Source of the DNA: an uncultured bacterium
GTDB lineage: Bacteria > Krumholzibacteriota > Krumholzibacteriia > LZORAL124-64-63
Length of the DNA: 64,000 nt
Assembly (NCBI GenBank): GCA_963772145.1
Contig: CAVYVY010000025.1
Location: 165,315-229,314 of the forward strand
Direction of reading: 5' to 3'
Position 1 is the stretch's first letter. The number at the start of each line of letters is the position of its first letter. The notes beneath the pieces were generated by a model. That model saw nothing but the letters and a program-made list of their open reading frames with translations. It was not told the DNA's origin and searched no databases. A program made the translations under genes and the position numbers. Of the stretch, positions 4,286-40,583 are shown one piece after another.

Positions 4286-5227
4286 CTAGTAGTGCAGTTC
4301 AAGCGAAAACTTGTGCAGATCGTCGAAGCCGGCCACTTTCGACTCTTCGAAGGCGTAGCCCACCTCCAGCGTCCCCTTGCGCAGACCGAGCCCGGCGGTC
4401 AACCCCTGATTGTCGTAATTGACACGCGATCCGACCCGCAGCGCGAGCTCCGGCACGACCCGGTACTCCGCCCCGATGTGCGCCTTCGCATTGCCATCAT
4501 TGGGCATGAAGATGTCTCCGGCCAGCGTCACCTTCCCGCGCAGGAACGGGTGCGACGGATCGTAGGCGGCACCCAGCCTCACCGCGGTGGGCAGGTCGAA
4601 CGGCTCGGCATTCAGATTGAGCTGCCCGCCCAGATTCGTCACGGACGCGCCGAGCACGAGTCCCTCGATCACCGCTTCGTGGCTGACGAACAGGTCCGCG
4701 GCAAAACCGGTGTCGCTGTAGATGTCTATCTTCTCGTACAGCACCTTCACGGTCGCCCCCACCGCCACCCGGTCGGCAACCTGTCGGGCATAGCTCACGC
4801 CGAAGGCGACGTCGTACGGCTTGAACGTCCCCTGCGGGACGCCGACCGTGTCCTCCTCGTAGCGATCGATCTCGTCGGCATAGAAACCGGAAAACTGCAC
4901 CCCGATCACGCCCCCCGCCGCGCGGTGGGCCAGGCAGACGCTCTCCTTGCTGAACAGGCCGTAGAGCCGCTGATGCTGCAGCAGCAGGTCGGTCCCGCCG
5001 CCCACCAGCGCGAGTCGGGCCGGATTCCACCAGACCGCCGCCGCGCCGGTCGGCGTCGCCACCCCCGCACCGCCCATCGCACTTTCGCGCGCCCCCACCG
5101 GCATCCGGAGGAAGAGGAGGCCGGCGTCGCCCGGCTTTCCGGCCCACGCCGCGGAGACTCCGGTGACCAGGGTGGCGGCCAGCGCCCACAGCGCCACCGT
5201 CCCGATTCGCATGTTCACGCGCGCCAT
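4286..5227 (-). CDS. outer-membrane beta-barrel protein, FadL/PorV/PorQ-like (NPA hatch motif)
   Basis: Signal peptide (TVALWALAATLVTGVSAAWA), N-terminal ...ESAMGGAGVATPTGAAAVWWNPARLA (NPA motif typical of FadL-fold barrels including T9SS PorV), alternating beta-strand pattern and C-terminal aromatic residue. Lies immediately downstream of a T9SS-CTD cargo gene. Confidence 0.5.
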   Translation of the reverse strand: MARVNMRIGTVALWALAATLVTGVSAAWAGKPGDAGLLFLRMPVGARESAMGGAGVATPTGAAAVWWNPARLALVGGGTDLLLQHQRLYGLFSKESVCLAHRAAGGVIGVQFSGFYADEIDRYEEDTVGVPQGTFKPYDVAFGVSYARQVADRVAVGATVKVLYEKIDIYSDTGFAADLFVSHEAVIEGLVLGASVTNLGGQLNLNAEPFDLPTAVRLGAAYDPSHPFLRGKVTLAGDIFMPNDGNAKAHIGAEYRVVPELALRVGSRVNYDNQGLTAGLGLRKGTLEVGYAFEESKVAGFDDLHKFSLELHY

Positions 5228-5330
5228 GATCCGCCTTTCTGCACCGCCACGCGACGGACCTCAGCCGTCCCGGGGGCATCATCATACTAACGAATGTCGT
5301 GTCCGCGGCGCCACTCCGGAAGCCGCCGCT

Positions 5331-8300
5331 TCAGCGCGCCACCGCCACCGGGGCGACACTGGTCCCGGTCGGCAGCCCCGCCCTTTCAGCGACCAGCCGG
5401 CAGAGGTAAAGCCCGCTGGCGAGTCCCTCCGCCGACAGCACGATCTCACCCGGTCCGCGGCCAGGAATGGCCACGGCCGTCGAAGCCAACACCAGCTGAC
5501 CCATCAGATCATACAGCGTGGCCCGCGCCACACACGCGGCCCCGAATTCGGCCCGCACGCGCAGGGGGCCCCGTTCCAGCGGCGTCGGATAGCAGATGTG
5601 GCTGCCCGCCACGATCAGCTCCGGCAATGTCGGGGCGACGGACTGCGGGCGCGGCAAGGGCCAGCGCCACGGATTTCCCTGCCACGCCGACCAGCCCGTA
5701 CCACCATCATCTTCCGCCACGATCCCCGTGCGATAGATCGCCAGGCGCGAAACAGGGTCCGTGCGCAGACCGCCCGTCTCCATGTTCCGATCCTCGATGC
5801 GCGCGAACGCGCCCACCGCGCAGATTTCCAGGCTGGAATCGCCGTCCAGATCGATGAAAAGACCGGTCCCGGCCACCGCGGACGGTCCCGCGACCGGCCA
5901 GCCGGCCTGCGTGCGGCCATCATCCCCGTTCAGATAGAGGCGACCGTCGCGGCTCTGGAAAAGCGTCAAATCCCTGCCGTCCGACCGCGCTTCCAGCGGC
6001 GCGGGGGCCATCGCGGCCGGTGCGGCGTCCATCTCCGGCCGGGGACGCATCGGCCAGCCGGTGCGCGGCGCGCCCGCGACCGTCACCCTCGCCAGACTCC
6101 CCTGGCCGACATAGGCGCCGCCGGCCGACAGCGGGCTGCGCACCGGTGAGCCGGTCGGCCAGGCATCCCGCCGCACGAACTCCTCGTTGCCGTTCCACCA
6201 CAGGGTCTCGGCCGCGCCCTCCGCGTCCACGATCACGGCGCCCCGCAGCGGCCCCTCGGCCACGACCGCCAGCAGGGGCAACGCCCCGGGGATCAGGGAC
6301 AGCGGCAAGGTCGCCGCGACAACCGGCGTCGCCGGCGGGGACCACGTGACCAGCCGCAGCGTCGACTCTCCGACCGCCGTGTCCACCACCGCGAGCGCCA
6401 GACGCGCCACGGCAACCGGAGTCGGCGGCGCCGGGACGGAGACGGCCCCCAGCAGCAGCGGCGGCAGGGCGTCCCGTCCGCCGGCGTCGATCCAGCGCAG
6501 GCGCGATTGTGCCGGTTCGCCGTACGTCTCGACCACGCAGGCCACGACGCTGCGGCCCGGGTCATAGACCTCGACACCGCCTGTCGCGGGCATCAGAACC
6601 GGCGGCAGCGCGCAATACTCCAGGGACGCCAGCAGCCCGAAGCTGTCCGGATCGTCGTCACCATCGGCAAGCTCACTGCCGTCCTCGCCATTGAAAGCGT
6701 ACAGACCGTGCGGTCCGCAGAGCACGATCTCCTGCCGGCCGTCCCCGTCGAGATCGCCGGCGGCGGCAGGCCCGTTCCAGCGCACCGGCACACCGTCGGC
6801 GTCGGTCCCGATCGCCAGAATCCCGCTGGTGGCGGGAGTCGCGTCGCCGTCGTACTGCTCGGACAGGTCCGGCTCGAAGGCGAAAACCTCGCCCCGCGCC
6901 CCTCCGACGACGATTTCCAGCCGGCCGTCGGGCGGCGCGTCGAGATCCACCGCCAGCAGGTGCGAACCGGCAAGATCGACGCCGTCCAGCCGCCGCTCCG
7001 CGCCCGGCACAGGGCCGGCGTCCGGTTCGTCCCGCCGGCAGCGGAAAGTCAGATGGTCGGCGTAGCGGATGAACGTCCGTGGCGGGACGTTGGAGATCGC
7101 GCTGGAGTCGGCCACCACGTTGGCGATGCGATCGATCACCACACCGGTCCAGGCGCCGCCGGCAGAGCGGCTGTCGGGGTTGGTCGTCGGGCCGAACGTG
7201 GCGTTGTCCTCGCCCCGGAAGCTGTCGAAGTCGCCGCCAAGCATGTACTCCGAAGGCTGGCGCGAGTCGAGATCCTGGATGCCGTCGGCCTCCTCCAGAT
7301 CGACGGACTTGCGGCGCGGATCGGAGTTGAAGAGGTTGCCCTCCGCCTCGATGGCGTCGGTGATCACCCCCTCGTCGACATGCCAGACATACAGCCCGCT
7401 GCCGGCCCCCTTCACGCCCGGCTGCCGCGCCTGATTCTCGCTCATGAAGAAGTCCCACTCGGCGCCGGTCAACAGCTCACGCGTGTCGGTCGCGGGATCG
7501 AAAAAGCCGGTCGGGGTGCCGTCACCGTTGGCTGAATTCGCGTCCAGAAAATCGGGAATATTGTTGCCGTTGAGATCACCGGCGAAGGAGAAGATGCGGT
7601 TCCCGTCGGGATCCTGCAGGCGGTACTCGAGCAGCCAGTACTCCCGTCCGCCGATCTCGACCCGCGCCGCCAGCGAATCCCCGGCCGCGCTCTCGATCGG
7701 ATCCAGACGCCAAACCTCTCCGGCGCCCGGTTCGACGGCATACGGTTCGATCCAGCCCATGAGGAGCTTGTTGAAGGCGGAAGGCTGACAGGGGATGAAG
7801 CCGGCGCCGACGAACAGTCCGTAGCCCATCAGATCGAATTCGCCCACGCCCTGACTGTCGGGATGCCCCGCCGGCGTGAAGTCGCTCAACGAGAGCATGC
7901 CCAGACGCAGGCCCACCTCGAAACAGTAGACCCCGAGGGAGCCGAAGAAGCCGCCGAAACCGGCGAACGGATCCTGGAATTCCGTTTCCGGCAAGCACCA
8001 GCACCTGGTTCACGATGACCGGTTCCCCCCCGCTGTCGACATCGTCGGTGGGCAGGTACGGCTGGGCCAGCATCGTATCGTCCGCGGCGCGGGCAAAGTC
8101 CTCGGGGCTCAGATAGGTGCTGTAGATCTGTTCCGGCGAATCGTTCAGCAGATCGGTCTCTTCGCCCGCGCCGGCGTGCACGATCACCACGGTGTCGTAG
8201 CGCGAGAAGTCCACCCGGTTGTCGAGCGCCGCGACCACGTCCCGCGCCAGCAGCACCGACTGCTCGCCCGCCACGGGGTGATTGCCGTACCAGCCCATCG

Positions 8301-8805
8301 GGCGGGCCAGGTTCGCCACGGCCCCCACGACAGCGCAGCGCACCGTGAGACGCCCGCCGCTGACGGCGTCGAAGTACGCGGCCACGTCGGCAAACTGATG
8401 CGCGAAGAAAAGCGAGTCGTGCGCCGCGTAGTAGAAATCGCTCTGCCGGGGCAGCGGAAACTCGCCCGGGACCGAGCCATATCGGCCGTACAGCAGACTG
8501 TCAGCGAAGTCGCAAAGCAACACAACGACGGACAGCGTGTCCGCGGGACTCTCCCCCGCGAGACGCTGGCGTAGCAGGGTACGCGAACCGTCCGCGAGCA
8601 GCGACGCCGACCGCTCCGCCAGAGCCTCCCGCACCGCCGACGGCAGCGGCCGGGGCGCGCGGGACGACGGCCCGGGCGCGGCCGGCACGGCGACGGCCGC
8701 GGCGAGCAACACCAGCATCACACCGGCCTGGAGCGCACACTGACACCGGCATCGGACAGGATGTGGCGCGGAAACACCGATCCGGGAACTGGACACCTTC
8801 GGCAT
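5331..8805 (-). CDS. large secreted protein with M6/InhA-like N-terminal domain, FG-GAP/VCBS repeats and T9SS C-terminal sorting domain; one apparent frameshift near 7985
   Basis: Two overlapping ORFs (7576-8853 and 5331-7994) in different frames. The upstream part has a signal peptide and M6-type motifs (VVLLCDFAD, VVIVHAGAGEE). The downstream part has FG-GAP-like DLDGDGRQEIV and DLDGDSSLEI repeats and a terminal T9SS CTD (ATLYDLMGQLV...GLASGLYLCRLV). ATG at 8805 has a GAGGAAG RBS. Confidence 0.6.
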
Positions 8806-8863
8806 GCCGATCTTCCTCACGAGTCGCGCGGGGATTCGTCGCGGGCGGGCCACCGACGTGGCG

Positions 8864-8893
8864 ATTATAAGGACGAACGGCCGACCCCGTCAA
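8864..8893 (-). promoter_or_regulatory. near-consensus sigma70 promoter (TTGACG-N18-TATAAT) upstream of the M6-like gene
   Basis: Minus strand reads TTGACG (8893-8888), an 18-nt spacer, then TATAAT (8869-8864), in a locally AT-rich patch ~55 nt upstream of the ATG at 8805. Confidence 0.45.
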
Positions 8894-8907
8894 CGCAGGG
8901 TCGGCCG
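8878..8907. repeat. perfect 10-bp inverted repeat (CGGCCGACCC / GGGTCGGCCG) with 10-nt loop
   Basis: Read directly from the sequence. The loop (cgtcaacgca) contains the -35 hexamer of the promoter above. On the minus strand the hairpin is followed by UUCGUCCUUAUAAU, ~205 nt after the stop of the upstream gene. Confidence 0.6.
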
Positions 8908-9112
8908 ACGATAGAGCCCGGAAGGGCCGGGGATCCGATATTGTCGCCCCTGATCGACAACAGCTTCACCCCGGTCCCCTCCGGCATCGATGACCACCGC
9001 CGGTCGGCTGTCGCGGCTCCCGTTCCCCTTGGCTGCCAACCTCTTCAGGGATCGGATCCGCGCCCCCCCGACCGGCGGCTGGGGGGAACAAATGACGAGC
9101 AACCTGCCCGGA

Positions 9113-10843
9113 TCAGCGCCGGCGCTGCTCTCCGTTATCTTCCTGGCCGCCCTTGGTGCGGCCTCCGCCACTCGCCGGGCGCGCGGTGCTCGGACCGCCC
9201 CCGGCACGCGCCGAGGGGGGCGATGCCGGGCGGTCCTCGCGGCGCAGCGCCGGCGCGGGCCGGTCGGTCGACGAGGGACGATCATCGCCACGGACCGCCT
9301 GTCCGCGCGCGGCTTCGGGCGCCCGAGTCTCTCCGCTCCCGTCCCTCACCCGCGAGGGCTCCGTGTCGCGTCCACGGCGGGATTCGGGCGCCGCCCGCTC
9401 GCCCCGCTCTGTGGTCGACCCGCCCCGTCCGCCCGACCAGATACGAGCGACGGGCTTGCGTGGATCGAGCGGTCTGATGGCGCCACGGTCAGTAGCGCCA
9501 CGCGCCGCGGACACCGGCCGCGCGGGGCTGAGCCGCTCGTCCCCGGGCCGCACCGGCGTGCGCACCCGGCCGCCCCGTACCTGATCTTCACGCACGCGCA
9601 GACCGCCTTCGCGAGCGTCACGAACCGGGGCCTCGCGGAAGGTTACCGGCTGGCGCAGGTCGGGGGCTACGTTCGCGAAGTCCCCGCGTCCGCCGCCCCC
9701 GCCCCCCTGCACGCGGGCCCCATCACGGTCGAGCTTCGTACGGGTGCGCAGGACCTCTTCCACGTCGCGCGGCGGACGCGCCTCGCGGACGAACGGTGTG
9801 GAACGCGCGATCTGCTTCTGCCGCCAGCGTTCGTCACGGATATCGCGCTTGTCGAGCGGCGAGTAGCGCCGATCACCCGACTTCCAGCGGCTCCAGGCGT
9901 CATCATGCCAGTAGGGCGAATAGTTCCAGACGTAGCAACTGAACGGCCAGTCGTACACCGCGTAGCCCGGCCAGTCATACCAGGGAGTGTACCAGTAGTT
10001 GATCCACGGCCGCGAACTCCAGGGATCGACATAGTAGTAGGCCGGGTACTGGTAGACCGGGTAATAGCCGAAACGGACGTACCAGCGGTTGGACCAGTCG
10101 TAGTCGTGATGAATCGCGATCGTGCAGCTCGCACCGTAAGGATCGTAGTTCTCGCCGGCGTGGCACTGACCGCACAGGTAGCGGGGATGCTCCACCTGGC
10201 GCTCGACGAAGTAGCTGACGTAGTTCGTCACGACGAAGTCCTCGGCGTTTTCCAGGCGGGTGATCGCGTGATTGACCTCGTTCATCGCCAGGAAAGGATC
10301 GCCAGCCACCGCGTAGCGATAATCTTCGTCCGCTGGCTCGTGATGAAAGTCCACCTCGATATCCCGCAGGTCGAAGGGGTACAGGGAGACCACGGCTTCG
10401 ACATACTCTACTCCCGGCTCGGAACCGGCGCGCAGGCGGGGTGCCCCGGCGGCCGGCAGGCTGTACTGATGACGGCCGAAGACAAAGCCGTCGTCGAGCC
10501 GGCTGCGTGGCCAGAGGATGGTGACCCCGCCATCGGAGTCGATGCGGTAGACGACGGCGTAGGCGTCCTGGTTCGCCTCGAAAGCGATGTTGATCTGTTC
10601 GCCCCGGCGGTACGTATCGCCGTCGCCGCGACCCTGCGTAATATTCACGCGCAGCGGCTGGTTCTCGTAGCCGGTCCAGCTCGGTCCGGCGCCATCGTCG
10701 GGCGGATTCGCCGCGGGGTTCGCCGCGCCGGCAAGGGGGATCAGCAGCAGCGCGACGAGCAGCAGGGAGAGCCGCGCCGACCCGTGACGGGTCCGGGCTA
10801 CTCCGCCCATGCCACGATGAGTGCGATATCCCTGATGTTCCAT
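9113..10843 (-). CDS. secreted hypothetical protein (576 aa): DUF4384-like N-terminal domain, CXXCH motif, extreme Tyr/Trp-rich segment, RGD, long Arg/Asp/Glu-rich disordered tail
   Basis: ATG at 10843 has a GAGGAGG RBS. Signal peptide LSLLLVALLLIPLAGAA. YAVVYRIDSDGGVTILWP resembles DUF4384. CGQCHAGENYDPYGASCTIAIHH follows, then ~70 aa with >45% Y/W (WYVRFGYYPVYQYPAYYYVDPW...). The last ~250 aa are R/D/E/G/P-rich with GGGGGGRGDF. Confidence 0.6.
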   Translation of the reverse strand: MEHQGYRTHRGMGGVARTRHGSARLSLLLVALLLIPLAGAANPAANPPDDGAGPSWTGYENQPLRVNITQGRGDGDTYRRGEQINIAFEANQDAYAVVYRIDSDGGVTILWPRSRLDDGFVFGRHQYSLPAAGAPRLRAGSEPGVEYVEAVVSLYPFDLRDIEVDFHHEPADEDYRYAVAGDPFLAMNEVNHAITRLENAEDFVVTNYVSYFVERQVEHPRYLCGQCHAGENYDPYGASCTIAIHHDYDWSNRWYVRFGYYPVYQYPAYYYVDPWSSRPWINYWYTPWYDWPGYAVYDWPFSCYVWNYSPYWHDDAWSRWKSGDRRYSPLDKRDIRDERWRQKQIARSTPFVREARPPRDVEEVLRTRTKLDRDGARVQGGGGGGRGDFANVAPDLRQPVTFREAPVRDAREGGLRVREDQVRGGRVRTPVRPGDERLSPARPVSAARGATDRGAIRPLDPRKPVARIWSGGRGGSTTERGERAAPESRRGRDTEPSRVRDGSGETRAPEAARGQAVRGDDRPSSTDRPAPALRREDRPASPPSARAGGGPSTARPASGGGRTKGGQEDNGEQRRR

Positions 10844-10889
10844 GTCACGCCTCCTCGCCGGCCCTTCAGCCGACCTCGCCATGCAGTCC

Positions 10890-11771
10890 CTAGAAACTCA
10901 TCACTTCGGCGACGACTCCCGTGCGAGACGGCGCCGGCATTGCCTTCAGCTCCCGATTGTCGGCAGCGATCTGATACGCCCAGTCAACAGTGATCGAGCC
11001 CGTGATGCCGTCAAGATCCATGACCGCGATCTTCGCGTAGTGATAGGTGGAAGTGCCGACGCGCACGACATAGGCATGGCCCCGAATCGCCTCGACCCGT
11101 CGCGCGACCGTCCAGCCCTCGAGGGGAGCGTAGCTGAGCAGATCGAGGTCGATGAAGCCCGAGTCGGTCATCACGTTGCCGTAGTCCTGCAGTTCGACAT
11201 CACTGCGCGCGGCGTAGACGAAAGGGACATCTCCGGACCACTCGACAAAGATGTCGGCCGTGGCATCCGCAGCCGGGACACGCAGGGCGCGGCTGAAGTC
11301 GAAGCCGCTGGCGGCCGGCGTGATGAGGCGGTCGAAGAGATCGACATCGAACCCCTCGGGACGCGGCGTGTCGAGCACGACCTCGAAGCTGAGCTCGCTC
11401 TCATTCCCCGCACCGTCGTACGAAGCGACCGCGTACTCATAGGTCAGGCCGTTCGTGACCGGTTCGTCCACGAAATGGTGCAGGCCGGTGGTCTGATCCC
11501 AATTCTCGTCCCAGGCAAGGTCGGCAAGATGCTCGAATTCGCCGTCGGCGTTGTCATCCCGATAAACGGCGTAGCCCGCCAGATCGCTCTGGTAGATGTC
11601 GTTCCACAACACGGTGATACGGCCGTCGCCGGTGACACTGTACACTCCGGTCGGCACCGCGGGGGGATCACGATCCACGCACTCGATGCAATCCTCTTCG
11701 GAACAGCCGCCGAGCCAGAACGCCACCGCCAGGGGCAGGATCGCCAGAGTCACCGCCTGCGCCATCTTCAT
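10890..11771 (-). CDS. lipoprotein with fibronectin type III-like domain
   Basis: ATG AAG ATG at 11771 has a GGAGG RBS. Lipobox LAVAFWLGGC. FN3-like strand pattern (YAVYRDDNADGEFEHL...GLTYEYAVASYDGAGNES). Confidence 0.6.
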   Translation of the reverse strand: MKMAQAVTLAILPLAVAFWLGGCSEEDCIECVDRDPPAVPTGVYSVTGDGRITVLWNDIYQSDLAGYAVYRDDNADGEFEHLADLAWDENWDQTTGLHHFVDEPVTNGLTYEYAVASYDGAGNESELSFEVVLDTPRPEGFDVDLFDRLITPAASGFDFSRALRVPAADATADIFVEWSGDVPFVYAARSDVELQDYGNVMTDSGFIDLDLLSYAPLEGWTVARRVEAIRGHAYVVRVGTSTYHYAKIAVMDLDGITGSITVDWAYQIAADNRELKAMPAPSRTGVVAEVMSF

Positions 11772-11850
11772 CTCTTCCTCCCTCACTTCGGCCGTCGCCG
11801 CCAGCCCCGCGCCGCGCCAGTGATGTGTCCCGGCCGAACCCGGATGTATC

Positions 11851-11865
11851 GCAGACATCGTGCCA
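11851..11865 (-). promoter_or_regulatory. sigma54-type promoter candidate P2 (TGGCACG-N4-CTGC)
   Basis: Minus strand reads TGGCACG ATGT CTGC G, a perfect -24 heptamer with the -12 GC correctly spaced. Predicted TSS is ~68 nt upstream of the FN3-lipoprotein ATG at 11771. Confidence 0.45.
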
Positions 11866-12159
11866 GGCTCACGCCCCCGCCGCGGATCGGGGATCGCACG
11901 ACGCCGTGCCGTGCGCGGCGGAGGAATGCCTCAGCATAAATTATTTGATTCGAGGATCTTGATTGCAGAGCCGGCCCTCGCCCGAAGGGTGGGAGTGGAC
12001 GACTCCCGCCAGTCGGCGTGCACCCGCGATGGGCGACACCGTCCCGGTTGTGCTCAACAGAGTCCAGCGGATCTCCGGGAGTAGACGCGGAACGGGCCGG
12101 GAAGTGGATGGCGCACGGCGGTGGGGAGCAGGCTGAATGCCGGTCCGGCGAGGCGGAAA

Positions 12160-12266
12160 AACGAGGAAAGAGCCCGCCGGGGTCCCGGCACGACCGACCT
12201 TGAATCTCGCCAATTCAAGGCCGGCCCGGCTCTTCCCTCGCATCGCCACATGCCTGACTGGTCAGG
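12160..12266. other. nested stable inverted repeats inside the AT-rich non-coding region (candidate structured RNA / leader)
   Basis: CGAGGAAAGAGCC (12162-12174) pairs with GGCTCTTCCCTCG (12228-12240), a ~13-bp helix with one mismatch. It encloses an 8-bp hairpin CCTTGAAT...ATTCAAGG (12198-12220). GCCTGAC-TG-GTCAGGC lies at 12251-12266. No conserved RNase P, tmRNA or SRP motifs were recognised. Confidence 0.2.
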
Positions 12267-12511
12267 CTTTGAATGAAACTTCGGGGAGGGATCCGTTCCG
12301 CCGGTTCTCTCTACTCTGCCCGATCGGTCCTCAAGACCCCACCTCTCAAGAACCCACAGGCAGAACCCACGAAGAGAACCTCCTCTTCCAGCCGGTAAGC
12401 AGTGAGGATCGCGGACCCGGATTTCCCTCCCCAAATTCTGCCGCCCCAGCGGCCTGGACCATGAGAAGCGGCTGTTTCCCTGCAACGAGAGCCCCTTCAG
12501 ATGCCATGTAC

Positions 12512-12527
12512 AGCACTCCGCGTGCCA
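12512..12527 (-). promoter_or_regulatory. sigma54-type promoter candidate P1 (TGGCACG-N4-GTGC)
   Basis: Minus strand reads TGGCACG CGGA GTGC T. Predicted TSS ~12501 would transcribe into the ~700-nt AT-rich non-coding region toward the downstream surface-protein genes. Confidence 0.4.
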
Positions 12528-12748
12528 CGGACGGCTTCGTTTGAAGAATCTTAAGTTATTGCAGAAACGCCATTTACATATTATGAGGAGGTATCCATCG
12601 GAGGACGGGAGCCGTGATTGATTCAATCGTTGACAGTCGGGGGCCTGCCCTCGCAAGTCGTTGATATAATGCTGTTTAATGTATTAAAATAATTTACAGG
12701 CGTCGGACCGCACATGGCCCGTGGTTACAAAAGGAGGGCAGGCGCGCG

Positions 12749-15700
12749 TCAGGAAGTCTGAAGACCGTAGAAACGGATCTTCTTGAGCAGATTGGGGTAG
12801 CTGATCTCCAGCATCCGGGCGGTCTCCGACTTGTTCCCTCGCGTCAGGCGGAGGGTTTCGGCGATCTCCCGGCATTCGACCGTCGCCAGAGTCTCGCGCA
12901 GCGGAGCCGGTCGACCAACCTTCCCCGCTGGCCGTCCCGCGCCGATCTCGTGCGGCAGATGCTCCGGCTTGAGAACACGCTCCTCCTGGGCCAGGACGAT
13001 CGCCCTCCGGACCGACTTCTCCAGCTCGCGGATGTTGCCGGGCCAGTCGTGCGCCACCAGCGCATCCATGAACGAGGAGGTGTATCCGGGGGGCGCAATC
13101 CCCAGTTCCCCGGCAAAGCGTTCGATGAAATGGTGCACGAGCAGCTGGATGTCATCGCGACGGGTGCGCAGCGGTGGTACAACGAGCGGAAAATCGAGCA
13201 ACCGGTAGAAAAGATCCTGGAGGAAAAGCCCGCGTTCCGTCAGGTCGTGGAGATCAGACTTGCTGGCGCAGATGATGCGCACATCGACCTGACGCTCCTG
13301 GTTGGAGCCGACCGGCCGGATGATCCTGGTGTCCAGGAACTGAAGCAGTTTGCCCTGCATGCTAAGCGGCATCTTCCCGATTTCGTCCAGGAAGACGGTT
13401 CCCCCCTCGGCCTCCGCCAGCAGCCCGCGCTTGTCGCCGATCGCCCCGGTGAAGCTGCCCTTGACGTGTCCGAACAACTCGCTTTCCAGCAGTGTTTCGG
13501 GAATCGCCGCGCAGTTGATCGCCAGGAAGCGCCCGCCGTGCCGCCGGCTGAGCGCGTGGACGGCCTGAGCCAGCAGCCCCTTGCCGGTGCCGGTCTCGCC
13601 GGTCAGCAGGACAGTGAGATCGCTGGGAGCCACCTTGCGAATGAGGGCGAGCAGTTCAAGCATCTGCTCGTTTTCGGTGATGACCTGATCGAAACTGGCG
13701 GTCTCGCCTGATGGCGCCACCGGCACAACAGGCTCGCCAGGCAGACGTCCCCGCCCCTTCTCGAACAGGAACAGGGCGAGAAAGCCCATGTAGGTGGCCA
13801 GGAAGTCGAGCGCGGGGCGCCCAAAGGCCACCTCACCACCCACGAGGCTGCTGCGTCCGAGGTAGAGGACGCCGAATCGTCTGCCCTCGAGCGTGATCGG
13901 CATGAAGAGACACCCGGCCGCCCTGTCCCGGAGCGCCGGCACGGCTGCCAACAGCGGTTCGCCCCCGGCCAGCCGGGAGAAGAGGACGGGGTTCGCCGAA
14001 TCCACGCTGGCGGGGACACTCGCGCGGTACCAGCGCCCGAGTTGATCGGAGAGATTGTCGGAAAGCCCCTCGCGAGCCACCACACGCAGCGGATGTGTTC
14101 CGGCCTCTGCCCAGTCGAGAGCGATGAAACCATGATCGGCGCGTACCCGGTCCATCCCCGCCCGCAGGACCGCCGTGAGATTGCGCGGGATGGAGGCATC
14201 ATGCCAACTGAAGATGCCTGGGATTCCGGAAATCGCCTGGAGATGGTTCTCGGTGCTCCCAATGTCGCCGAGCAGAGCGCGTTCGATGCGTCCGCGCAGA
14301 TCGCTGATCGCGAGACTGAGCCCGGCATCGCCCAGCCCGCCCGCGTTGCGCTCGAGTTCATAGGCCGTCAGCAGCGCGTCGTCGAACTGGCCGAGCCGCA
14401 TCTGCACTTCCGCCAGCCCCTGCTGCAGCCGGCAGAGCAGACGGTCATCGAGCACCGCGCTCCCGCTCTCCTGGGCCTCGCTCAGATAGCGGCGCAACAG
14501 CAGGAATTCCGGCTGGGCGGCCGTGGCAAGCCGGGCATCAAGGAAAGCGAGGATCGCATCGATCCAGAGACGGGGCAGGTTTTGCTGTCGGAACAACTGG
14601 ATCGCGCGCCTGAACTCCGCATCCGCTCCGGCAAAATCTCCCCGGGTCGCGCGGGCGCGACCGAGTGTCAGATGGCAAAATCCCAGTTCGTACTGCTCGC
14701 CGCACTTCTCGCAGACCACCACCGCCGCGAGGCCGGTTTCGATCGCCTGTTCGAGATCGCCCCGCATCCGCTGCGCCTCGGCGATCCGTCGGAGCAGTTC
14801 GCCCTCCAGATCACAGACTTTGCCGATCGTGCGACTCTTGTCGAGACCCAGACTGTAATTGAAGAGCGCCTTGTCTGTCTCGCCGCGCAGCAGCAGGATG
14901 TCCCCCAGGTACTCGTCCGCGATTGTCTCCTCGCGCAGGTACTGCTCCTGTTCAGCCAGGATCTTGCCCTCGAGCACGAACTCCTCGGCTTTGACGAGAC
15001 GTCCCGCACGCATTTCCAGCAGTCCGTAGGCCAGACAGACCTTGGTCTGACGATTCCGGTCACCGAGACTCCGCGCCAGACGCAGGCTGCGGTCGAGATC
15101 CTCGCGCGCTTCGCCCAGACGCCCGGTCTTGCCGAGAATGATGCCGCGATTCAGGTGCAGGCGGGCCAGCAGGTGCGTGGCGCCGTGACGCTGCGCGATG
15201 GCTACGGCCTTCTCGAGGAGATCGAGCGCCCGGTTCCAGCGGCAGGCGTTCTTGTGGAGCAGCCCGAGGTTGTTGTGCAGCGTGGCCGCACCCAGTTCGT
15301 CTCCGATCCGCCGATAACTGGACAGCGCGTCGAGATAAAACTCCTCCGCCTTGTCCAGACGTCCCGAGGCGTTGGTGGCAGGCCCCCATCGTCACCTGCA
15401 GGTTCGCCACCTCCCGATGCTCGTCCGTCACGGCCAGGATGGCGAAGGCGTGCTTGGCGGTCTGCAGGGCGTCGGTGAGCAGGCCCCGCTGGGAAAGGAG
15501 GATGGCCCGTCGGCCCATAAGCGGGGCAAGGAGATGGGCGCGCTCCTCGGCTGTCAGATCGTCGGCAGCGTCGAAGAGCGTGGAAGCGAGTCCAAGGAAC
15601 GATTCCGCAAGATCGAGATCACCGATATTCAGCGCGGCATCGACACTCTTGCGCAGCACCCCGGCCCGGCGGGCCGGGAGAAGCAGCTGCAACGTGGCAC

Positions 15701-15869
15701 CTTCGAGTAGTCGTCGATAGTACTCCAGCGAGGAACTGTAGGCGCAGGCCTGCGCGTGGAGATCCCCGATTTCCTCCAACCGATCGCACTCCTCCGCGTC
15801 GAGCGCGTGGGAACGCCGTGGATATTCCGCCTCCGGCCTGCTGTACCCGTTCGGCTGCTCGCTCATCAA
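12749..15869 (-). CDS. sigma54-dependent transcriptional activator (bacterial enhancer-binding protein) with N-terminal TPR repeats and GAF-like domain; apparent frameshift(s) near 15000-15400
   Basis: AAA+ sigma54-interaction domain (GETGTGKGLLAQAVH, GSFTGA, ESELFGH, arginine-finger region) and C-terminal Fis-type HTH in ORF 12749-15013. The N-terminal TPR region continues in ORF 15060-15869 in another frame. Confidence 0.75.
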
Positions 15870-15950
15870 TCCGTCCCCTGGCGAGTGGGTGGATGGATCA
15901 CTCCCACACTTCCGGCGACTTCGTCACCCGGCCCGTGATCGCCTCAACCG

Positions 15951-16286
15951 CTACGGCAACAGGCGCCGCAGCAGAAGGGTCACCCCACCCACCTTCAGCC
16001 AGAGCAGCACGGCCGCGCCGGCCGACGCAATGGTCACGGTGGATGAGCGGTCTGCCACAGCAAACACGCGATTGCCCTCGATGATGTCGTCGGGATCGCC
16101 ATTCGAGACGCCACCACCCGAACCGCCCCCAAGCACTCCGGTGGTCGGCGGGAGCACCGTCGAGCCGGGCGCGAGGGTCAGATTTCGAGGCTGGATCACG
16201 GTCGCCGCACTTGCCGGAGAAATACCCGAGGCGCCAAAGAGTGTCAGAGCCAGCAGGGTCACGAGGATCCAGCGAAACTTGCTCAT
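15951..16286 (-). CDS. small secreted protein (111 aa) with C-terminal hydrophobic segment plus RR tail
   Basis: ATG at 16286 has a GAGGAG RBS. Signal peptide MSKFRWILVTLLALTLFGASGISPASA. Gly-rich middle. C-terminus ...SAGAAVLLWLKVGGVTLLLRRLLP, a TM-like segment followed by a basic pair, as in tripartite C-terminal sorting signals. Expressed from the strong promoter below. Confidence 0.5.
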   Translation of the reverse strand: MSKFRWILVTLLALTLFGASGISPASAATVIQPRNLTLAPGSTVLPPTTGVLGGGSGGGVSNGDPDDIIEGNRVFAVADRSSTVTIASAGAAVLLWLKVGGVTLLLRRLLP

Positions 16287-16390
16287 ATCGGATCTCCTCA
16301 GCCTTGAGGCCGTGGGGCGGCCCCGCCAGGGAAGCCGCGGGCGAACGGCAACGGACCGCCCACCTCGATCCTCCCGATCAGGCAATCATT

Positions 16391-16419
16391 ATTATAGGTT
16401 AGTTGGTTCTCCCCGTCAA
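16391..16419 (-). promoter_or_regulatory. near-consensus sigma70 promoter TTGACG-N17-TATAAT
   Basis: Minus strand reads TTGACG (16419-16414), a 17-nt spacer, then TATAAT (16396-16391). Sits in an AT-rich patch between the response-regulator stop (16454) and the small-protein ATG (16286). Confidence 0.55.
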
Positions 16420-16453
16420 ATGCCGGAACCGGCCACCCCGCACCCCGAGGCGA

Positions 16454-17818
16454 TCAATCCTGACTGTTGGGCTGGGTTTTCAGGCGATAGCGGGTGATTT
16501 TCTTGTAGAGATTGCTCCGCTGCATTCCCAGCTGTTCTGCCGTTTGGCTGACATTGTAGCGATTCTCCCGCAGCTTCGCCTGCAGGAAAAGCGCCTCCGC
16601 CCGGGCCTTGAAATCCTGGAACTCCTTGCAAGACAACAGATCATCCAACTCCGATCCGACTTCGGGAGCCGGCCGCAACAGAGGCAGATCGACCGGCCGC
16701 ACCACCGGGCCCGGCGCGAGGATCAACAGCCGTTCCACGAGATTGCGCAGTTCGCGGACATTCCCCGGCCAGTTGTGCTCGCGCAACAGGGCCAGCGCTT
16801 CCGGACTGAACTCCCGGGGCAGCGTTTTCAGGTGGGGAGCGAGCATCCGCATGAAGTACTCAAGCAGAAGCGGAATATCATCGCCCCGGTCGCGCAGCGG
16901 CGGCAGATGGATCGCCAGCACGTTGAGCCGGAAGAACAGATCCTGCCGGAAGCCGGAGTCGGGTCGCGCAAGATCACGGTTTGTTGCCGCGACGATGCGC
17001 ACGTCGGTCCGCAGCGTTTCATTGCCACCGACCCTTTCGAAGCGACTTTCTTCGACGGCCTTCAGGACCTTGGCCTGCGCCTCGTCGCTCATGTCGCCGA
17101 TCTCATCGAGGAAGAGCGTGCCGCCATCGGCCTGCTCGAACTTGCCGATGCGCTGGCGCTCCGCGCCCGTGAAGGCCCCCTTCTCATGCCCGAACAGTTC
17201 ACTTTCCACCAGTTCGCGCGGAATGGCGGCACAGTTCACCTCCACGAGCGCCTGTTCGCGCCTGCGGCTCTGCTCGTGCAGCGCTCGGACAACCAGTTCC
17301 TTGCCGGTTCCGTTCTCGCCGGTGATGAGAACGGTCGAGTCGGTGGGGGCGACTTTCCCGATGAAAGAGCGCACCTCGCGCAGTTGGAAACATTCGCCAA
17401 TAAGGGGGTCGCGAAAACCGCCCCGCGCCTTGAGGTCCTCCCTCTCGAAAAGCACGCGCCTGTGCGCCAGGCAGTTCTCCAAAGTAACCAGCAACCTGGA
17501 GCGGTCGGGTGGCTTCTCCAGGAAATCGTAGGCGCCCTTGCGCACCGCTTCCACGGCGGTTTCAATATTGCCGTGTCCGGAGATGACGATCACCGGCGGC
17601 GGCGCCGGCGACTTCGCCATCTGATCGAGCACCTCGAAACCGTCCATGCCCGGCATCTTGATGTCCAGCAGAACGGCGTCGATGCTCTCGCCGGCCAAAG
17701 CCTTCAGGGCGGCGGCGCCCGAAGCGGCCTGCACGACCCGGTATTTCTCATAGGTCAGGATCCGGGCGAGCGCCGTCCGGATGGCGCTTTCGTCGTCAAC
17801 GACGAGGATGGTCCGCAA
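16454..17818 (-). CDS. sigma54-dependent two-component response regulator (NtrC family: REC + AAA+ + Fis HTH)
   Basis: Intact 454 aa. REC domain with VVDDE...D (phospho-acceptor region), GENGTGKELVVRALH Walker A, canonical GAFTGA, C-terminal HTH. TTG start with GAAAGGA RBS. Confidence 0.85.
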   Translation of the reverse strand: MRTILVVDDESAIRTALARILTYEKYRVVQAASGAAALKALAGESIDAVLLDIKMPGMDGFEVLDQMAKSPAPPPVIVISGHGNIETAVEAVRKGAYDFLEKPPDRSRLLVTLENCLAHRRVLFEREDLKARGGFRDPLIGECFQLREVRSFIGKVAPTDSTVLITGENGTGKELVVRALHEQSRRREQALVEVNCAAIPRELVESELFGHEKGAFTGAERQRIGKFEQADGGTLFLDEIGDMSDEAQAKVLKAVEESRFERVGGNETLRTDVRIVAATNRDLARPDSGFRQDLFFRLNVLAIHLPPLRDRGDDIPLLLEYFMRMLAPHLKTLPREFSPEALALLREHNWPGNVRELRNLVERLLILAPGPVVRPVDLPLLRPAPEVGSELDDLLSCKEFQDFKARAEALFLQAKLRENRYNVSQTAEQLGMQRSNLYKKITRYRLKTQPNSQD

Positions 17819-17860
17819 AGCAGGTCCTTTCCCGCAGGAATGCGCCGCCTCGAGGGCGCA

Positions 17861-18220
17861 TCACAGCATCCAGTCTTCGAGCACGCCATGGTCGATCGCC
17901 CGTTCGAAGGGGACAACGGCTGGCGCGATGGTCAGGGGCAGGGCGCCGGCGGCCGGGATCTCACGGCGGATCCAGACCGCCAGCGACGCGAGGGGAGTGC
18001 CGGCGACGATCGGGGCATAGACACGACGGCGGCCCTGACGTCGCGCGGCCAGCCAGCCGCCACGAACCAGCACCGCCAGATGATGCGAAACCAGGGATTG
18101 ACCCAGCCCGGTGGCCGCCATCAGATCGCCGACCGAGAGGGAACGATCGAGCAGCAGGCGCAAGAGGACCAGACGATTCGGATCGCCCAGCGCGAGCAGA
18201 CTTGCGGCCGCCGAGGTCAT
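17861..18220 (-). CDS. ArsR/SmtB-family transcriptional regulator
   Basis: 119 aa with winged HTH pattern LGDPNRLVLLRLL...SVGDL...GLGQSLVSHHLAVL...GWL. Sits directly upstream of, and co-oriented with, the response regulator. Confidence 0.7.
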   Translation of the reverse strand: MTSAAASLLALGDPNRLVLLRLLLDRSLSVGDLMAATGLGQSLVSHHLAVLVRGGWLAARRQGRRRVYAPIVAGTPLASLAVWIRREIPAAGALPLTIAPAVVPFERAIDHGVLEDWML

Positions 18221-18371: not shown

Positions 18372-19496
18372 ATGACCGGTCCCAGACCGCTGATCCGCGA
18401 CGTGCCGACGGACGAATTGGCCCCCTGCTCCAGCGACTCGGCCAGCCGGCGTACCGGGCGCGAGCAGCTGGCGCTCTGGCTGCACCGGGCGCACGCGCTC
18501 GACTGGGAAACCCTCAGCGACCTGCCGCGCGATCTGCGCGTCGGCTGGCCGACCTGTACGACCTGCAGGGGCTGTTCCCGGGCGAGCGACACGCGGCCGA
18601 GGACGGCACGCGGAAGTTCCTGTTCCGCCTGCGCGACGGCGCGACCGTCGAGAGCGTCATCATCCCGATGGAGAATCACCTCACCTTCTGCCTCTCCTCC
18701 CAGGTGGGGTGCGCCATGGCGTGTCGCTTCTGCGCGACGGCGCGCGGCGGGCTGGTTCGCAACCTCAGCTCGCCGAGATCCAGGAGCAGGTGATGCATCT
18801 GGCTCGCGATCTGGCCGCTCAACCGCCGCCCGGATTCGGCGCGCGCGGTTTCAACCTGGTTTTCATGGGCATGGGTGAGCCGCTCGACAACTGGGAACAG
18901 GTCTGCGGCCGCGCTGGACGTCTTCACCGCTCCCGACGGCTGGGGGCTCTCGCCCCGCCGGGTGACCATTTCCACCTCGGGCCACCGGGAAGGCCTGCTG
19001 CAGCTGCTGCGCCTGCCGCAGGCGGTGGGACTGACCCTGTCCGTCAACGCCGTCTCGCCCGACCTGCGGCGGCGGCTGATGCCGGTCTCCGCCCGCACGC
19101 CGCTGCCACAGCTGCTGGAACTGGCCGAGAAATACGCCCGTCGCATCCAGCGCAAGGTCACGCTCGGCTATGTGCTGATCGGGGGCGTGAACGACGATCT
19201 CTGCCGAGGCGCGCGCGCTCGCCGCACTCGCCGCCCGCCGCCCGTTCAAGATCAATCTGATACCGCTCAACCGGCTCGACGACGATCGGCTCTCGCCGCC
19301 CGGGGCCGATCAGGTGCTCGCCTTCCAGCGCGTGCTGCTGGAGGCGGGATTGCAGGCATACATCCGGGTGAGCGGCGGTCAGGAGATCGCGGCGGCGTGC
19401 GGGCAACTGCGGCAGCGCCGACAGTCGCCAACGCCGTCCGGCGCCGGGAGCGCCCCCGGAGAGGGATCTCCCGGCGAAGCGGGGCGACCTGACTAG
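18372..19496 (+). CDS. rlmN: 23S rRNA/tRNA m2A methyltransferase RlmN (radical SAM); split over three frames by apparent indels
   Basis: RlmN segments occur in order across ORFs 18111-18878, 18293-18793, 18709-19260, 18875-19492 and 19314-19496: [79 protein letters not shown]. Confidence 0.75.
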
Positions 19497-19891
19497 AGCA
19501 GGTCGGCCAGGTGCGTTTCGTCGAGCGCCTTGACGAGCGCCTTCTGGGCGTTGCGCCAGGCGTCGGACACCAGACAATCCTCGTGGCGCTCGCAGGGATC
19601 GACGCTGCGCAGGCAGTGGTTCAGCGCAATGCCCCCCTCGCACACTTCGACGATGCTGCGCAGGGTGATCTCGTCCGGTTTGCGGCCGAGCGAGAAGCCA
19701 CCCTTGACCCCGCGGTGGGACTTCACGATGTCCTGCTGCGAGAGCATCTGGAAGATCTTGGCCAGGAACGCCTCGGAAACGCCGCAGGTCTGGGCGATGA
19801 CCTTGAGCTGGATCGGCTTGTCGCTGTTGCGACGCGCCAGTTCCTGCAGGCCACGAATCGCGTATTCCGTCTGACGGGTGATCTGAAGCAT
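19493..19891 (-). CDS. Rrf2-family (IscR/NsrR-like) transcriptional regulator with Cys cluster
   Basis: 132 aa: MLQITRQTEYAIRGLQELA...GVKGGFSLGR wHTH. Cys residues at 84/93/100/106 (CEGG...C...C.....C) are consistent with Fe-S cluster ligation. Overlaps the rlmN 3' end by 4 nt (convergent). Confidence 0.75.
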   Translation of the reverse strand: MLQITRQTEYAIRGLQELARRNSDKPIQLKVIAQTCGVSEAFLAKIFQMLSQQDIVKSHRGVKGGFSLGRKPDEITLRSIVEVCEGGIALNHCLRSVDPCERHEDCLVSDAWRNAQKALVKALDETHLADLL

Positions 19892-20010
19892 GAGCCACCC
19901 TTTCTCCGCGACATCCACTCTCCCCCGGGCGACAAAATTGGGAAAGCGGAGCCGCAAAGTCAAATCAGGCCGCAACGGTCCGACAAAAAGGCAAGTCGGC
20001 GGCCAGGCTC

Positions 20011-39788: not shown

Positions 39789-39817
39789 GTTCCCCGCTGC
39801 CTCCCCGGTGACACGGC

Positions 39818-40583
39818 TCACGGCAGCCGTACTGTCTCGACGCTGGTCGCCGGGAGCCAGCCGGTCCCGGCGCCGCCCAGGCTGATCCGCCGCCACCCCT
39901 CCTGCCGGTCCTGCACGGTGAGCGGCAAACCGTCGTGCACGCGGAAAGACGACCGGGTAGGAGGCCGCCGGGCCGCTGCGCACCTCCGCCTCGGCAACCA
40001 CCACCACGGCCTGCCCGCCGGCCCGTTCCTGATGGAAGCGCAACGCCGTCGTCGCGCCGGCCGCGACCAGCAGGAACAGCCCGCCACGGAGCAGTCGCGC
40101 GACGAACGGCGGCGCGCCGCGTCGTCGCCACCGCAGAGCGGCCAGCGCGCGCGCAGATCCACGTGAGCGCCAGCGTGAGCAGACTCCATTCGTCGAGCGA
40201 GAGCGATGCCCGGCAGAGCCGCCAGCTGGGCGATGCCGGGGGGCAGGCGGTCGCGGCAGCAGATCGCGATCCCGCCCCCGCGCGAGCGTCAGTTCCAGAT
40301 TCGCCCGCACGTCCCGATCCCGCGGAGCCAGGCGGCGGGCGCGCAGGTAGCTGACGACCGCGAGGCCGAGTTCGCCCCGTCTGGCATGCGCATTGCCGAG
40401 GTTGTAGTGCAGGGCGGGATCATCCACGCCCAGCGCCACGGCCTCGCGATAGCGCGCGACCGCGGTGGCGTCATCGCCGGCCGCGCACGCCGCGGCGCCC
40501 TCGGACAGCAACCGCGCCACGGCGGCCGTGTCACGACCGACTTCGCCCGCTCCGGCCGCGCCCGGGCCGAGCAGGCAGACCAT
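39818..40583 (-). CDS. batE: BatE-like protein (TPR + SH3b); 2 apparent frameshifts
   Basis: ATG at 40583. TPR segment (YREAVALGVDDPALHYNLGNAHARRGELGLAV), TM, then SH3b-like C-terminus (AVVVVAEAEVRSGPAASYPVVF...VHDGLPLTVQDRQEGWRRISLGGAGTGWLPATSV) in ORF 39818-40189. Confidence 0.5.

Follow-up and report, generated by a model that had tools for sequence, protein, structure and literature searches.

Two conserved sigma-54 promoters, one directly preceding a structured RNA, in a surface-protein locus of uncultured Krumholzibacteriota-like bacteria

The locus described here lies in a 64,000-nucleotide (nt) stretch of DNA from an uncultured bacterium of the Krumholzibacteriota (assembly GCA_963772145.1, contig CAVYVY010000025.1, positions 165,315 to 229,314 of the forward strand; hereafter the window, in which positions are counted from the first letter), and contains two promoters of the sigma-54 type, P1 and P2, downstream of two genes for enhancer-binding proteins (EBPs). 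We found that both promoters keep their sequence and their position across relatives, that the stretch behind P1 holds a conserved RNA structure with its own terminator, and that the surrounding genes are syntenic. These observations point to a regulatory module conserved in Krumholzibacteriota-like bacteria and made up of four transcription units that share a strand, in which P1 would drive the RNA, P2 would drive the genes for a lipoprotein with FN3 domains and a DUF4384 protein, and sigma-70-type promoters would drive two further units, one for the second EBP (EBP2) and one for an M6-like protein and a PorV/PorQ-like barrel. We regard this reading as probable and hold it with good confidence.

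Two sigma-54 promoters and their conservation

The gene order in the window (GC content ~70%) was established from a listing of open reading frames (ORFs) and from Pfam and NCBIfam scans, and runs along the minus strand just as a preliminary description of this DNA, made from the sequence alone, had given it: an ArsR-type regulator, a response-regulator EBP (RR-EBP), a small secreted protein, EBP2 with its TPR and GAF domains, a non-coding gap, and then the FN3 lipoprotein, the DUF4384 protein, the M6-like protein and the barrel. That description had also placed two TGGCACG sites on the minus strand downstream of the two EBP genes, and an exact pattern search agrees, giving two minus-strand matches to TGGCACG-N5-TGC in the whole window, one at 12527-12513 and the other at 11865-11851. 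The chance expectation for this pattern is 0.30, and two or more matches occurred in 3 of 100 shuffles. Both sites have the form of a -24/-12 element, with GG and GC 10 bp apart in TGGCAC-N5-TTGC-like sequence.

12512..12527, minus strand: sigma-54 promoter P1 (TGGCACGCGGAGTGCT), exact match; predicted start at 12501
11850..11865, minus strand: sigma-54 promoter P2 (TGGCACGATGTCTGCG), exact match; predicted start at 11839, 68 nt before the FN3 ATG

We also scored the window with an approximate position-specific scoring matrix (PSSM) for sigma-54 promoters, its frequencies approximating those of the compilation of Barrios et al. 1999. P1 scored 14.8 bits (rank 2) and P2 scored 12.1 bits (rank 8); the best site per shuffled window averaged 14.8 bits, and the PSSM score alone is therefore not significant. 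The top match in the window, 40382-40397 on the plus strand (TGGCATGCGCATTGCC), contradicts the earlier statement that nothing comparably good occurs elsewhere. Its position, antisense to the LGNAHAR codons of a TPR gene (37986-40583, minus strand), led us to dismiss it as a chance match and not a promoter.

Comparison with relatives carries the case for the two promoters. Homologs of the FN3 lipoprotein (n = 573) belong, where named, to Candidatus Krumholzibacteriia or Latescibacteria, and a genome scan yielded 30 loci with true FN3 orthologs. The preliminary description had proposed looking for synteny in related genomes, and we observed it in loci L001 to L010, which share the RR-EBP, the small ORF, the TPR-GAF EBP, a gap of ~0.9 kb, FN3, DUF4384, the M6-like gene and the PorV-like gene, L002, L005, L007 and L010 ending prematurely on one side. 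Together with the window these make up 11 syntenic loci, in which identity to the FN3 protein of the window is 43–96%. In all 11, the top two PSSM matches within the 2.3 kb upstream of FN3 were the distal and the proximal site, P1 lying at -620 to -1021 relative to FN3 (-1867 where an insertion is present) and P2 at -87 to -185 relative to the FN3 match. Most of the remote loci (Zixibacteria, WOR-3, Ignavibacteria and others) have a single best sigma-54 match, 33–276 nt upstream of FN3, and an EBP gene directly upstream of the sigma-54 site and FN3 recurs even in Zixibacteria-type loci.

Metagenomes were searched with an RNA-only pattern, ACCGGC-N44-56-AKGTGGGGT-N95-125-GGCGAGAYTC, which contains no promoter sequence and returned 41 loci. 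About 34 of the 41 carry a -24/-12 element 110–132 nt upstream of ACCGGC and a second one 217–361 nt downstream, and in every informative metagenome locus (36/36) EBP2, RNA, FN3 and DUF4384 follow one another on the same strand, with the M6-like and PorV-like genes next where the contig is long enough. Three loci found by the pattern, L087, L093 and L104, have neither the promoters nor the synteny and were set aside as chance matches. Taken over all collections, the GG-N10-GC elements are kept at fixed positions in ~45 loci in which the flanking proteins are 36–60% identical and the spacer has diverged. A phylogenetic footprint at fixed positions argues that both elements are functional, and we consider this comparison decisive for taking both predicted sigma-54 promoters as real, with conservation extending over about 45 genomes or loci of uncultured relatives.

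A structured RNA behind P1

The preliminary description had seen an AT-rich non-coding stretch of ~800 bp between EBP2 and FN3, and had both promoters feed surface-protein genes. The region is lower in GC than the window as a whole (61% versus 70%), but the gap measures ~890 bp and holds a conserved RNA gene, and P1 directly precedes this RNA, which has its own terminator, instead of a surface-protein gene.

12157..12501, minus strand: structured non-coding RNA, ~345 nt, recognized by covariation, an intrinsic terminator, minimum free energy (MFE) folds and 37 homologs

The stretch between P1 and P2 is conserved at the DNA level across loci whose proteins are just 45–60% identical. An alignment of 37 non-redundant copies gave an RNAalifold consensus of 46 pairs, 34 of them with compensatory changes. 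In this consensus structure 90.5% of cells were paired, compared with 40–58% when the partners were slid, and we counted 304 cells with double changes, compared with 51–128 in the slid controls; none of 500 shuffles matched the observed values for pairing and double changes. The alignments were based on MAFFT, and an anchored version was better in some regions and worse at the 3′ end. The same helices appeared in 33–36 of the 37 independent MFE folds, and the window copy (12501-12157) folds with an MFE of -182.3 kcal/mol (z = -6.1).

The first helix of the RNA starts only a few nt from the +1 predicted from P1. A long-range helix covaries at GGGGAGGGA/UCCCUCCCC, UUCGGAAGGGGA/UCCCCUCCGA and UUCGGGAGA/UCUCCCGAA. 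At the 3′ end, AAGAGCC/GGCUCUU closes a three-way junction and a U-tract comes next, as in an intrinsic terminator. Four apical loops are invariant, namely GUUGCAGGGA, ACCGGC, GGUGGGGU and GGCGAGAYUC. With its boundaries taken from the sequence, the predicted non-coding unit thus occupies the interval between a sigma-54 promoter and an intrinsic terminator.

There is one copy of the RNA per locus, with no second copy in the window, and an RNA profile found no copy in the remote loci. In one further locus, L020 (3414-3775), a TPR-GAF-type EBP is accompanied by two sigma-54 sites 345 nt apart, the distal one followed by a sequence of ~150 nt with a clear terminator (GAGCACCGG...CCGGGGCUC and U7) that is negative with the RNA profile. 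This short sequence may be a divergent or minimal form of the RNA.

Activators, protein-coding units and neighbouring genes

The genes and elements upstream of P1 and P2 are as follows.

16454..17818, minus strand: NtrC-type RR-EBP with REC, AAA+ and HTH_8 domains (Pfam Sigma54_activat E = 5.6e-65, Response_reg E = 6.6e-31, HTH_8)
16391..16419, minus strand: sigma-70-type promoter TTGACG-N17-TATAAT, 11/12 positions, preceding the small-protein gene and EBP2
15951..16283, minus strand: small secreted protein of ~110 aa with a signal peptide, an invariant GDPDDxIxGNR motif and a hydrophobic C-terminus
12749..15869, minus strand: EBP2, of TPR-GAF-AAA+-HTH architecture (Pfam Sigma54_activat, PF00158, E = 2.5e-63; TPR; weak GAF; HTH_8)
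12680..12698, minus strand: distal upstream element of P1 (TGTAAATTATTTTAATACA), candidate EBP site at -171
12619..12635, minus strand: proximal upstream element of P1 (TGTCAACGATTGAATCA), at about -108; the window copy departs from the strict motif
12550..12564, minus strand: site resembling that of integration host factor (IHF) (CTGCAATAACTTAAG), between the upstream elements and P1, found by eye
12046..12088, minus strand: element upstream of P2 (CGTCTAC...GGAGA...GCACAAC), candidate site of the other EBP; the window copy is degenerate

The RR-EBP has its GAFTGA loop at about 17179 and is syntenic in L001 to L009 and in many metagenome loci, and the corresponding loop of EBP2 reads GSFTGA. 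A histidine kinase partner had been reported to be missing from the window, and our search of the window for an H-box was likewise negative. Between the two EBP genes, an ORF with the features of the small secreted protein was present in 16 of 16 loci examined; it matched no Pfam or NCBIfam family, and the protein could be a signal or ligand for the adjoining regulators. In the same number of loci (16/16), a TTGACx-N16-18-TAxxxT sequence matching 8–11 of 12 positions lies 20–60 nt past the stop codon of the RR-EBP.

Upstream of P1, the motif TGTNAA-N5-TT occurs at -171/-172 in 12 of 37 loci and at -108 to -114 in 13 of 37. Against a background frequency of 0.059 per kb per strand, 28 of its 41 occurrences in 696 kb (both strands) fall upstream of P1. 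In right-aligned sequences a conserved CAA-N4-TTA/R block resembling an IHF site was seen by eye about 35–50 nt upstream of P1. The element upstream of P2 is different: relatives have GTCYC-N14-TGTCC, the spacing of its two repeats being exactly 19 nt in at least 10 loci, followed by CRCACAA, and the element lies 155–245 nt upstream of P2. Zixibacteria-type loci have a REC-type EBP, one sigma-54 site and FN3, with no RNA, and in L015, L023, L024, L026, L027 and L029 the palindrome GCACAA-N3-5-TTGTGC is found 60–110 nt upstream of the sigma-54 site; standing beside a REC-type EBP gene, it is likely an enhancer site. Since the elements upstream of P1 and P2 differ, one activator per promoter is suggested, and the shared GCACAA half-site together with the strict co-occurrence of the TPR-GAF EBP, P1 and the RNA suggests that the RR-EBP activates P2 and that EBP2 activates P1.

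Downstream of P2 we recognized two genes and a second conserved non-coding element.

10890..11771, minus strand: FN3 lipoprotein with lipobox LGGC; true ATG at 11771
9113..10882, minus strand: DUF4384 protein (Pfam DUF4384 E = 2.7e-12) with an HPRYxCxQCH...C motif and a W/Y-rich region
8907..9103, minus strand: second conserved non-coding element, directly after the DUF4384 stop, with UCCCCCCAUC-like, GAAGAGGUUGGCA and GAUCAGGGG blocks and a terminator hairpin

The G-C of the lipobox is invariant among the FN3 lipoprotein homologs, and the AlphaFold model of the lipoprotein (predicted local distance difference test, pLDDT, 84.5) gave fold matches to generic tandem FN3 domains. In the DUF4384 protein, HPRYxCxQCH and a Cys 12 residues further on (residues ~230–260) are invariant in all orthologs, the remote Zixibacteria-type ones included, and are followed by an extremely W/Y-rich segment. 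The CxQCH of all orthologs fits the CXXCH haem-attachment motif. The AlphaFold model of this protein is confident only in an N-terminal beta-sandwich, with pLDDT <50 across the CXXCH region, and its fold matches are generic Ig-like; the Cys motif may bind haem c or, equally possible, form a Cys3-His metal site.

The second element has invariant blocks in an alignment of 14 loci. In individual folds a long terminator hairpin forms, its apical loop containing GAUCAGGGG and a U-rich tail following it, and RNAalifold gave 10 pairs for the hairpin, 6 of them compensatory. The element had no Rfam match, and could be a structured 3′ untranslated region (UTR) or a small RNA (sRNA) derived from one. 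We also considered by eye a contact between the GGUGGGG loop of the RNA behind P1 and the CCCCAUC block of this element, and rejected it, as the window sequences show no consistent covariation.

Beyond this element lie a promoter of another type and the last two genes of the locus.

8864..8893, minus strand: sigma-70-type promoter TTGACG-N18-TATAAT, 11/12 positions, preceding the M6-like gene
5331..8853, minus strand (start at about 8853): M6-like protein with FG-GAP repeats and a C-terminal domain (CTD) of the type IX secretion system (T9SS) type (NCBIfam NF052323; TIGR03296)
4286..5227, minus strand: PorV/PorQ-family outer-membrane barrel (NCBIfam NF033709, 145 bits, cutoff 90)

A consensus scan of the window found two sigma-70-type promoters at 11/12 positions, both intergenic (those at 16391..16419 and 8864..8893), and no sigma-70-type match before the RNA or FN3. 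In relatives the motif before the M6-like gene lies mostly about 200–250 nt past the DUF4384 stop, with TTGAC invariant in the alignment, and no good sigma-54 site was found in the gap between the DUF4384 and M6-like genes in 25 loci. As near-consensus pairs are conserved across related loci at both sites, canonical -35/-10 promoters of the sigma-70 type seem to be in use in this lineage, in contrast to Bacteroidota.

The M6-like protein matched NF052323 with E = 7.5e-41 and 140 bits, below the equivalog cutoff of 600, and TIGR03296 with 62 bits (E = 6.9e-17). Its CFEVGLRLG segment, whose coding DNA is conserved in relatives, we take by eye, from the translation set against M6 sequences and not from a hidden Markov model alignment, to occupy the HEXXH position, so that the catalytic residues would be lost. 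A T9SS CTD had been proposed for this protein in the preliminary description. The window protein itself is sub-threshold (TIGR04183 14.9 bits, E = 0.02, cutoff 23; PF18962 12.3 bits, cutoff 27), and support for the CTD comes mainly from orthologs, which reach 14.8–24.6 bits with TIGR04183, down to E = 1.8e-5, and E values down to 6e-13 at the C-terminal end of NF052323. The PorV-like barrel proposed at the same time passes the NF033709 family cutoff and stays below the equivalog cutoffs (PorQ 89 versus 220, PorV 61 versus 250, PorV2 40 versus 325 bits). PorZ-PorQ and PorU-PorV are known pairs, and by analogy the barrel probably anchors the CTD-bearing M6-like protein at the cell surface.

How far the transcript from P2 extends bears on the claim that the locus is a dedicated sigma-54 regulon for a secreted or outer-membrane module. 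That claim fits P2, which stands before FN3-DUF4384, and does not fit P1, which directly precedes the RNA. Sigma-54 dependence of the M6-like and PorV-like genes is doubtful because they have their own conserved sigma-70-type promoter, no sigma-54 site and a preceding terminator, and a terminator-ended element followed by a promoter makes FN3-DUF4384 the most likely extent of the sigma-54 protein unit. In the alternative, which was the view of the preliminary description, all six downstream genes would form one sigma-54 operon, and the internal TTGACx/TATAAT would be non-functional or minor. All of these genes lie on the same strand, the FN3-DUF4384-M6-PorV synteny is conserved in Krumholzibacteriota-like loci, and the terminator after the second element has a weak U-tract in high-GC members, the window included. 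However, in 21 of 25 loci the -35/-10 pair agrees with the consensus at 10 or more of its 12 positions, a conserved terminator hairpin stands before it, and remote lineages keep the FN3-DUF4384 pair together and are often missing the M6 and PorV genes. We give the single operon some weight and consider it unlikely.

Two of the genes in the proposed four-unit module are broken by single-nucleotide insertions. The EBP2 frame is interrupted by one extra G near 15363-15365, where the frames join at ...CHQRLG/RLDKAEEF; this G is not present in L001, L002 or L003, and in L001 the gene is in one frame. The M6-like frame is interrupted by one extra T near 7993-7994 that is not present in L086, L001, L090 or L003. 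L001, the closest relative (a long-read metagenome-assembled genome of the Microflora Danica), has its own, different indel in a G-run. As these are +1 homopolymer insertions found in no relative, and as L001 has an indel of its own, both frameshifts are probably sequencing or assembly errors and not biology. Other long ORFs of the window also look frame-broken, for example 19493-22075 (minus strand), in which, judged by eye from the translation, the C-terminal ~145 residues are Rrf2/IscR-type-like and the upstream part is methylmalonyl-CoA-mutase-family-like, in mixed frame. At the other end of the locus lies one more regulator, whose position 5′ of the RR-EBP is found only in the closest relatives, L001 and L002.

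17861..18220, minus strand: ArsR/SmtB-family regulator (Pfam HTH_5 E = 2.5e-12; NCBIfam NF033788 63 bits, cutoff 55)

The proposed circuit, its alternatives and known systems

In the four-unit module that we propose, the first unit would run from the sigma-70-type promoter just downstream of the RR-EBP through the genes for the small secreted protein and EBP2. The second would start at P1, served by two TGTNAA-N5-TT sites and the IHF-like site, and yield the ~345-nt RNA, ending at its own terminator. The third would start at P2, with its different upstream element, and comprise the FN3 and DUF4384/CXXCH genes and then the ~190-nt 3′ element with its terminator. The fourth would be transcribed from the second sigma-70-type promoter and encode the presumably inactivated M6-like CTD protein and the PorV/PorQ-like barrel. 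EBP2 would act on P1 and the RR-EBP on P2, and, if CbrB-CrcZ, GlrR-GlmY and LuxO-Qrr are a guide, the RNA would be a trans-acting regulator that works through its invariant apical loops.

Several points weigh against this proposal. A PSSM score is insufficient in a GC-rich window, and the matrix is approximate. An RpoN-box regular expression found nothing in the window or in any related locus collected. Transcript starts and ends are predictions, and transcription from P2 may read through into the M6-like and PorV-like genes. The pairing of EBPs with promoters is based only on co-occurrence and the shared GCACAA half-site, and the P2 element of the window is degenerate. The MAFFT alignments are imperfect, and helices P1, P3 and P5 of the RNA are drawn from independent folds and not from the covariation tool. 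Finally, when RNAduplex was used to pair the RNA with the P2 leader of each of 37 loci, mean z was -0.08 and no site recurred consistently, in a crude comparison dominated by long unconstrained duplexes.

The transcript from P1 could also be read as a long leader that acts in cis on the FN3 operon in the manner of an attenuator or riboswitch; it would then continue into FN3-DUF4384 and leave P2 an auxiliary role. In all informative loci the RNA lies directly upstream of FN3 and keeps one orientation, its structure is large and riboswitch-like, and its terminator could be conditional. Against a leader, P2 is conserved and has its own upstream element, both between the terminator and FN3, the spacer after the RNA terminator is poorly conserved at 171–476 nt, and remote lineages have P2-FN3 without the RNA. 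In L006, an insertion sequence-like element of ~1.2 kb (8500-9800), with a 271-aa ORF in opposite orientation that resembles a zinc-finger transposase, sits between the RNA terminator and P2 with RNA, P2 and operon intact; since the insertion leaves both sides intact, RNA and operon appear to be separable units. We therefore consider a cis-acting leader decidedly improbable.

Whether the ~345-nt region might be a small-protein gene, or a known RNA family missed by the searches, can be judged from its homologs. Some of them allow ORFs of as many as 75 codons, and Rfam is limited to curated families. However, there is no conserved ORF in the region, as ORF starts and frames differ among homologs and several have no ATG-initiated ORF at all, indels are not multiples of three, and paired columns covary. 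Rfam 15 gave no match at the gathering threshold or at E ≤ 10 for the window region, nor at E ≤ 1 for five diverse homologs, a tRNA search found none, and we found no description of non-coding RNAs for the phylum in the literature. Both versions of this explanation seem very unlikely to us. That both motifs are chance GC-rich matches in a locus served by ordinary promoters is scarcely credible: the best scores of shuffled windows do equal that of P1, P2 ranks only eighth, the equally good match at 40382 is clearly spurious and sigma-70-type promoters are present in the locus, but GG-N10-GC stays fixed in ~45 loci at 36–60% protein identity while the spacer diverges, two EBP genes adjoin, and no sigma-70-type match precedes the RNA or FN3.

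Returning to the four-unit module, the RNA boundaries, the promoter and the likely regulator are all defined from sequence and are open to metatranscriptomics or to tests in a heterologous host. The locus offers a first view of sigma-54/EBP circuitry and of sigma-70-type promoters in a phylum without a cultured representative in these data; in the literature we found no account of non-coding RNAs, sigma-54 or T9SS in Krumholzibacteriota, nothing on PorV2, the M6-like family or the M6-like/barrel gene pair, and nothing useful on DUF4384. The FN3 and DUF4384/CXXCH pair stands behind a sigma-54 site across several lineages of the Fibrobacteres-Chlorobi-Bacteroidetes (FCB) group, which would make it a widespread surface module. 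The locus also illustrates how a “non-coding spacer”, lying downstream of an activator gene and ahead of the gene that it was presumed to control, can be what the activator acts on.

Judged by its sequence, the predicted RNA is a family absent from Rfam 15, of a kind that is already known, namely a sigma-54-dependent RNA beside an activator gene. A bolder proposal, which we put forward tentatively and would not rely on, is that it is the first of a new class of riboregulators, large, highly structured and under sigma-54 control, in an uncultured phylum of the FCB group. Such an RNA would be made in response to a signal sensed by the TPR-GAF EBP and would work with the second RNA element (its C-rich UCCCCCCAUC block) on the assembly of a surface complex, not by classical seed pairing but by binding protein or through contacts between loops.

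Among known systems, crcZ adjoins cbrB, and in GlrR-GlmY and LuxO-Qrr systems an EBP gene adjoins at least one sRNA gene. In Pseudomonas, CbrB activates the sigma-54 promoter of crcZ with IHF, and the resulting RNA is several hundred nt long (PMC6296734). The present locus would resemble this arrangement in that a sigma-54 promoter and an NtrC-family EBP, perhaps with IHF (for which a site-like block was seen by eye), drive a non-coding RNA. It differs in that CrcZ uses unstructured A-rich Hfq/Crc-binding motifs, whereas the present RNA is almost fully paired and displays four invariant apical loops; the two share no sequence or structure similarity (no Rfam match), and the activator would here be a TPR-GAF EBP and/or a REC-type EBP in a phylum of the FCB group. 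GlmY is likewise sigma-54 dependent (Francke et al., 2011, PMC3162934), and the sRNAs of LuxO-Qrr also have sigma-54-dependent promoters that rely on a response-regulator EBP. The likeness to GlrR(QseF)-GlmY and LuxO-Qrr lies in the genomic logic alone, that of a sigma-54-dependent RNA under EBP control. Those RNAs are about 100–200 nt long and belong to Rfam families; the present one, at ~345 nt, has no sequence relationship to them and is accompanied by a second sigma-54 promoter that would serve a surface-protein operon.

The protein-coding genes have distant counterparts. The M6-like protein aligns to the N-terminal M6 region of NF052323 and its orthologs align to the C-terminal sorting domain of that family, although its 140 bits, versus a cutoff of 600, mark it as distantly related and not as an equivalog; the barrel is similarly a member of NF033709 by the family cutoff and fails the cutoffs for PorV, PorQ and PorV2. 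In agreement with sigma-54 control of the cell exterior as a general theme (Francke et al., 2011, PMC3162934), EBP genes here adjoin sigma-54 promoters of secreted-protein and lipoprotein genes. What sets this locus apart from that theme is that it belongs to an uncultured phylum, and that its two different activators would control a structured RNA as well as a protein operon.

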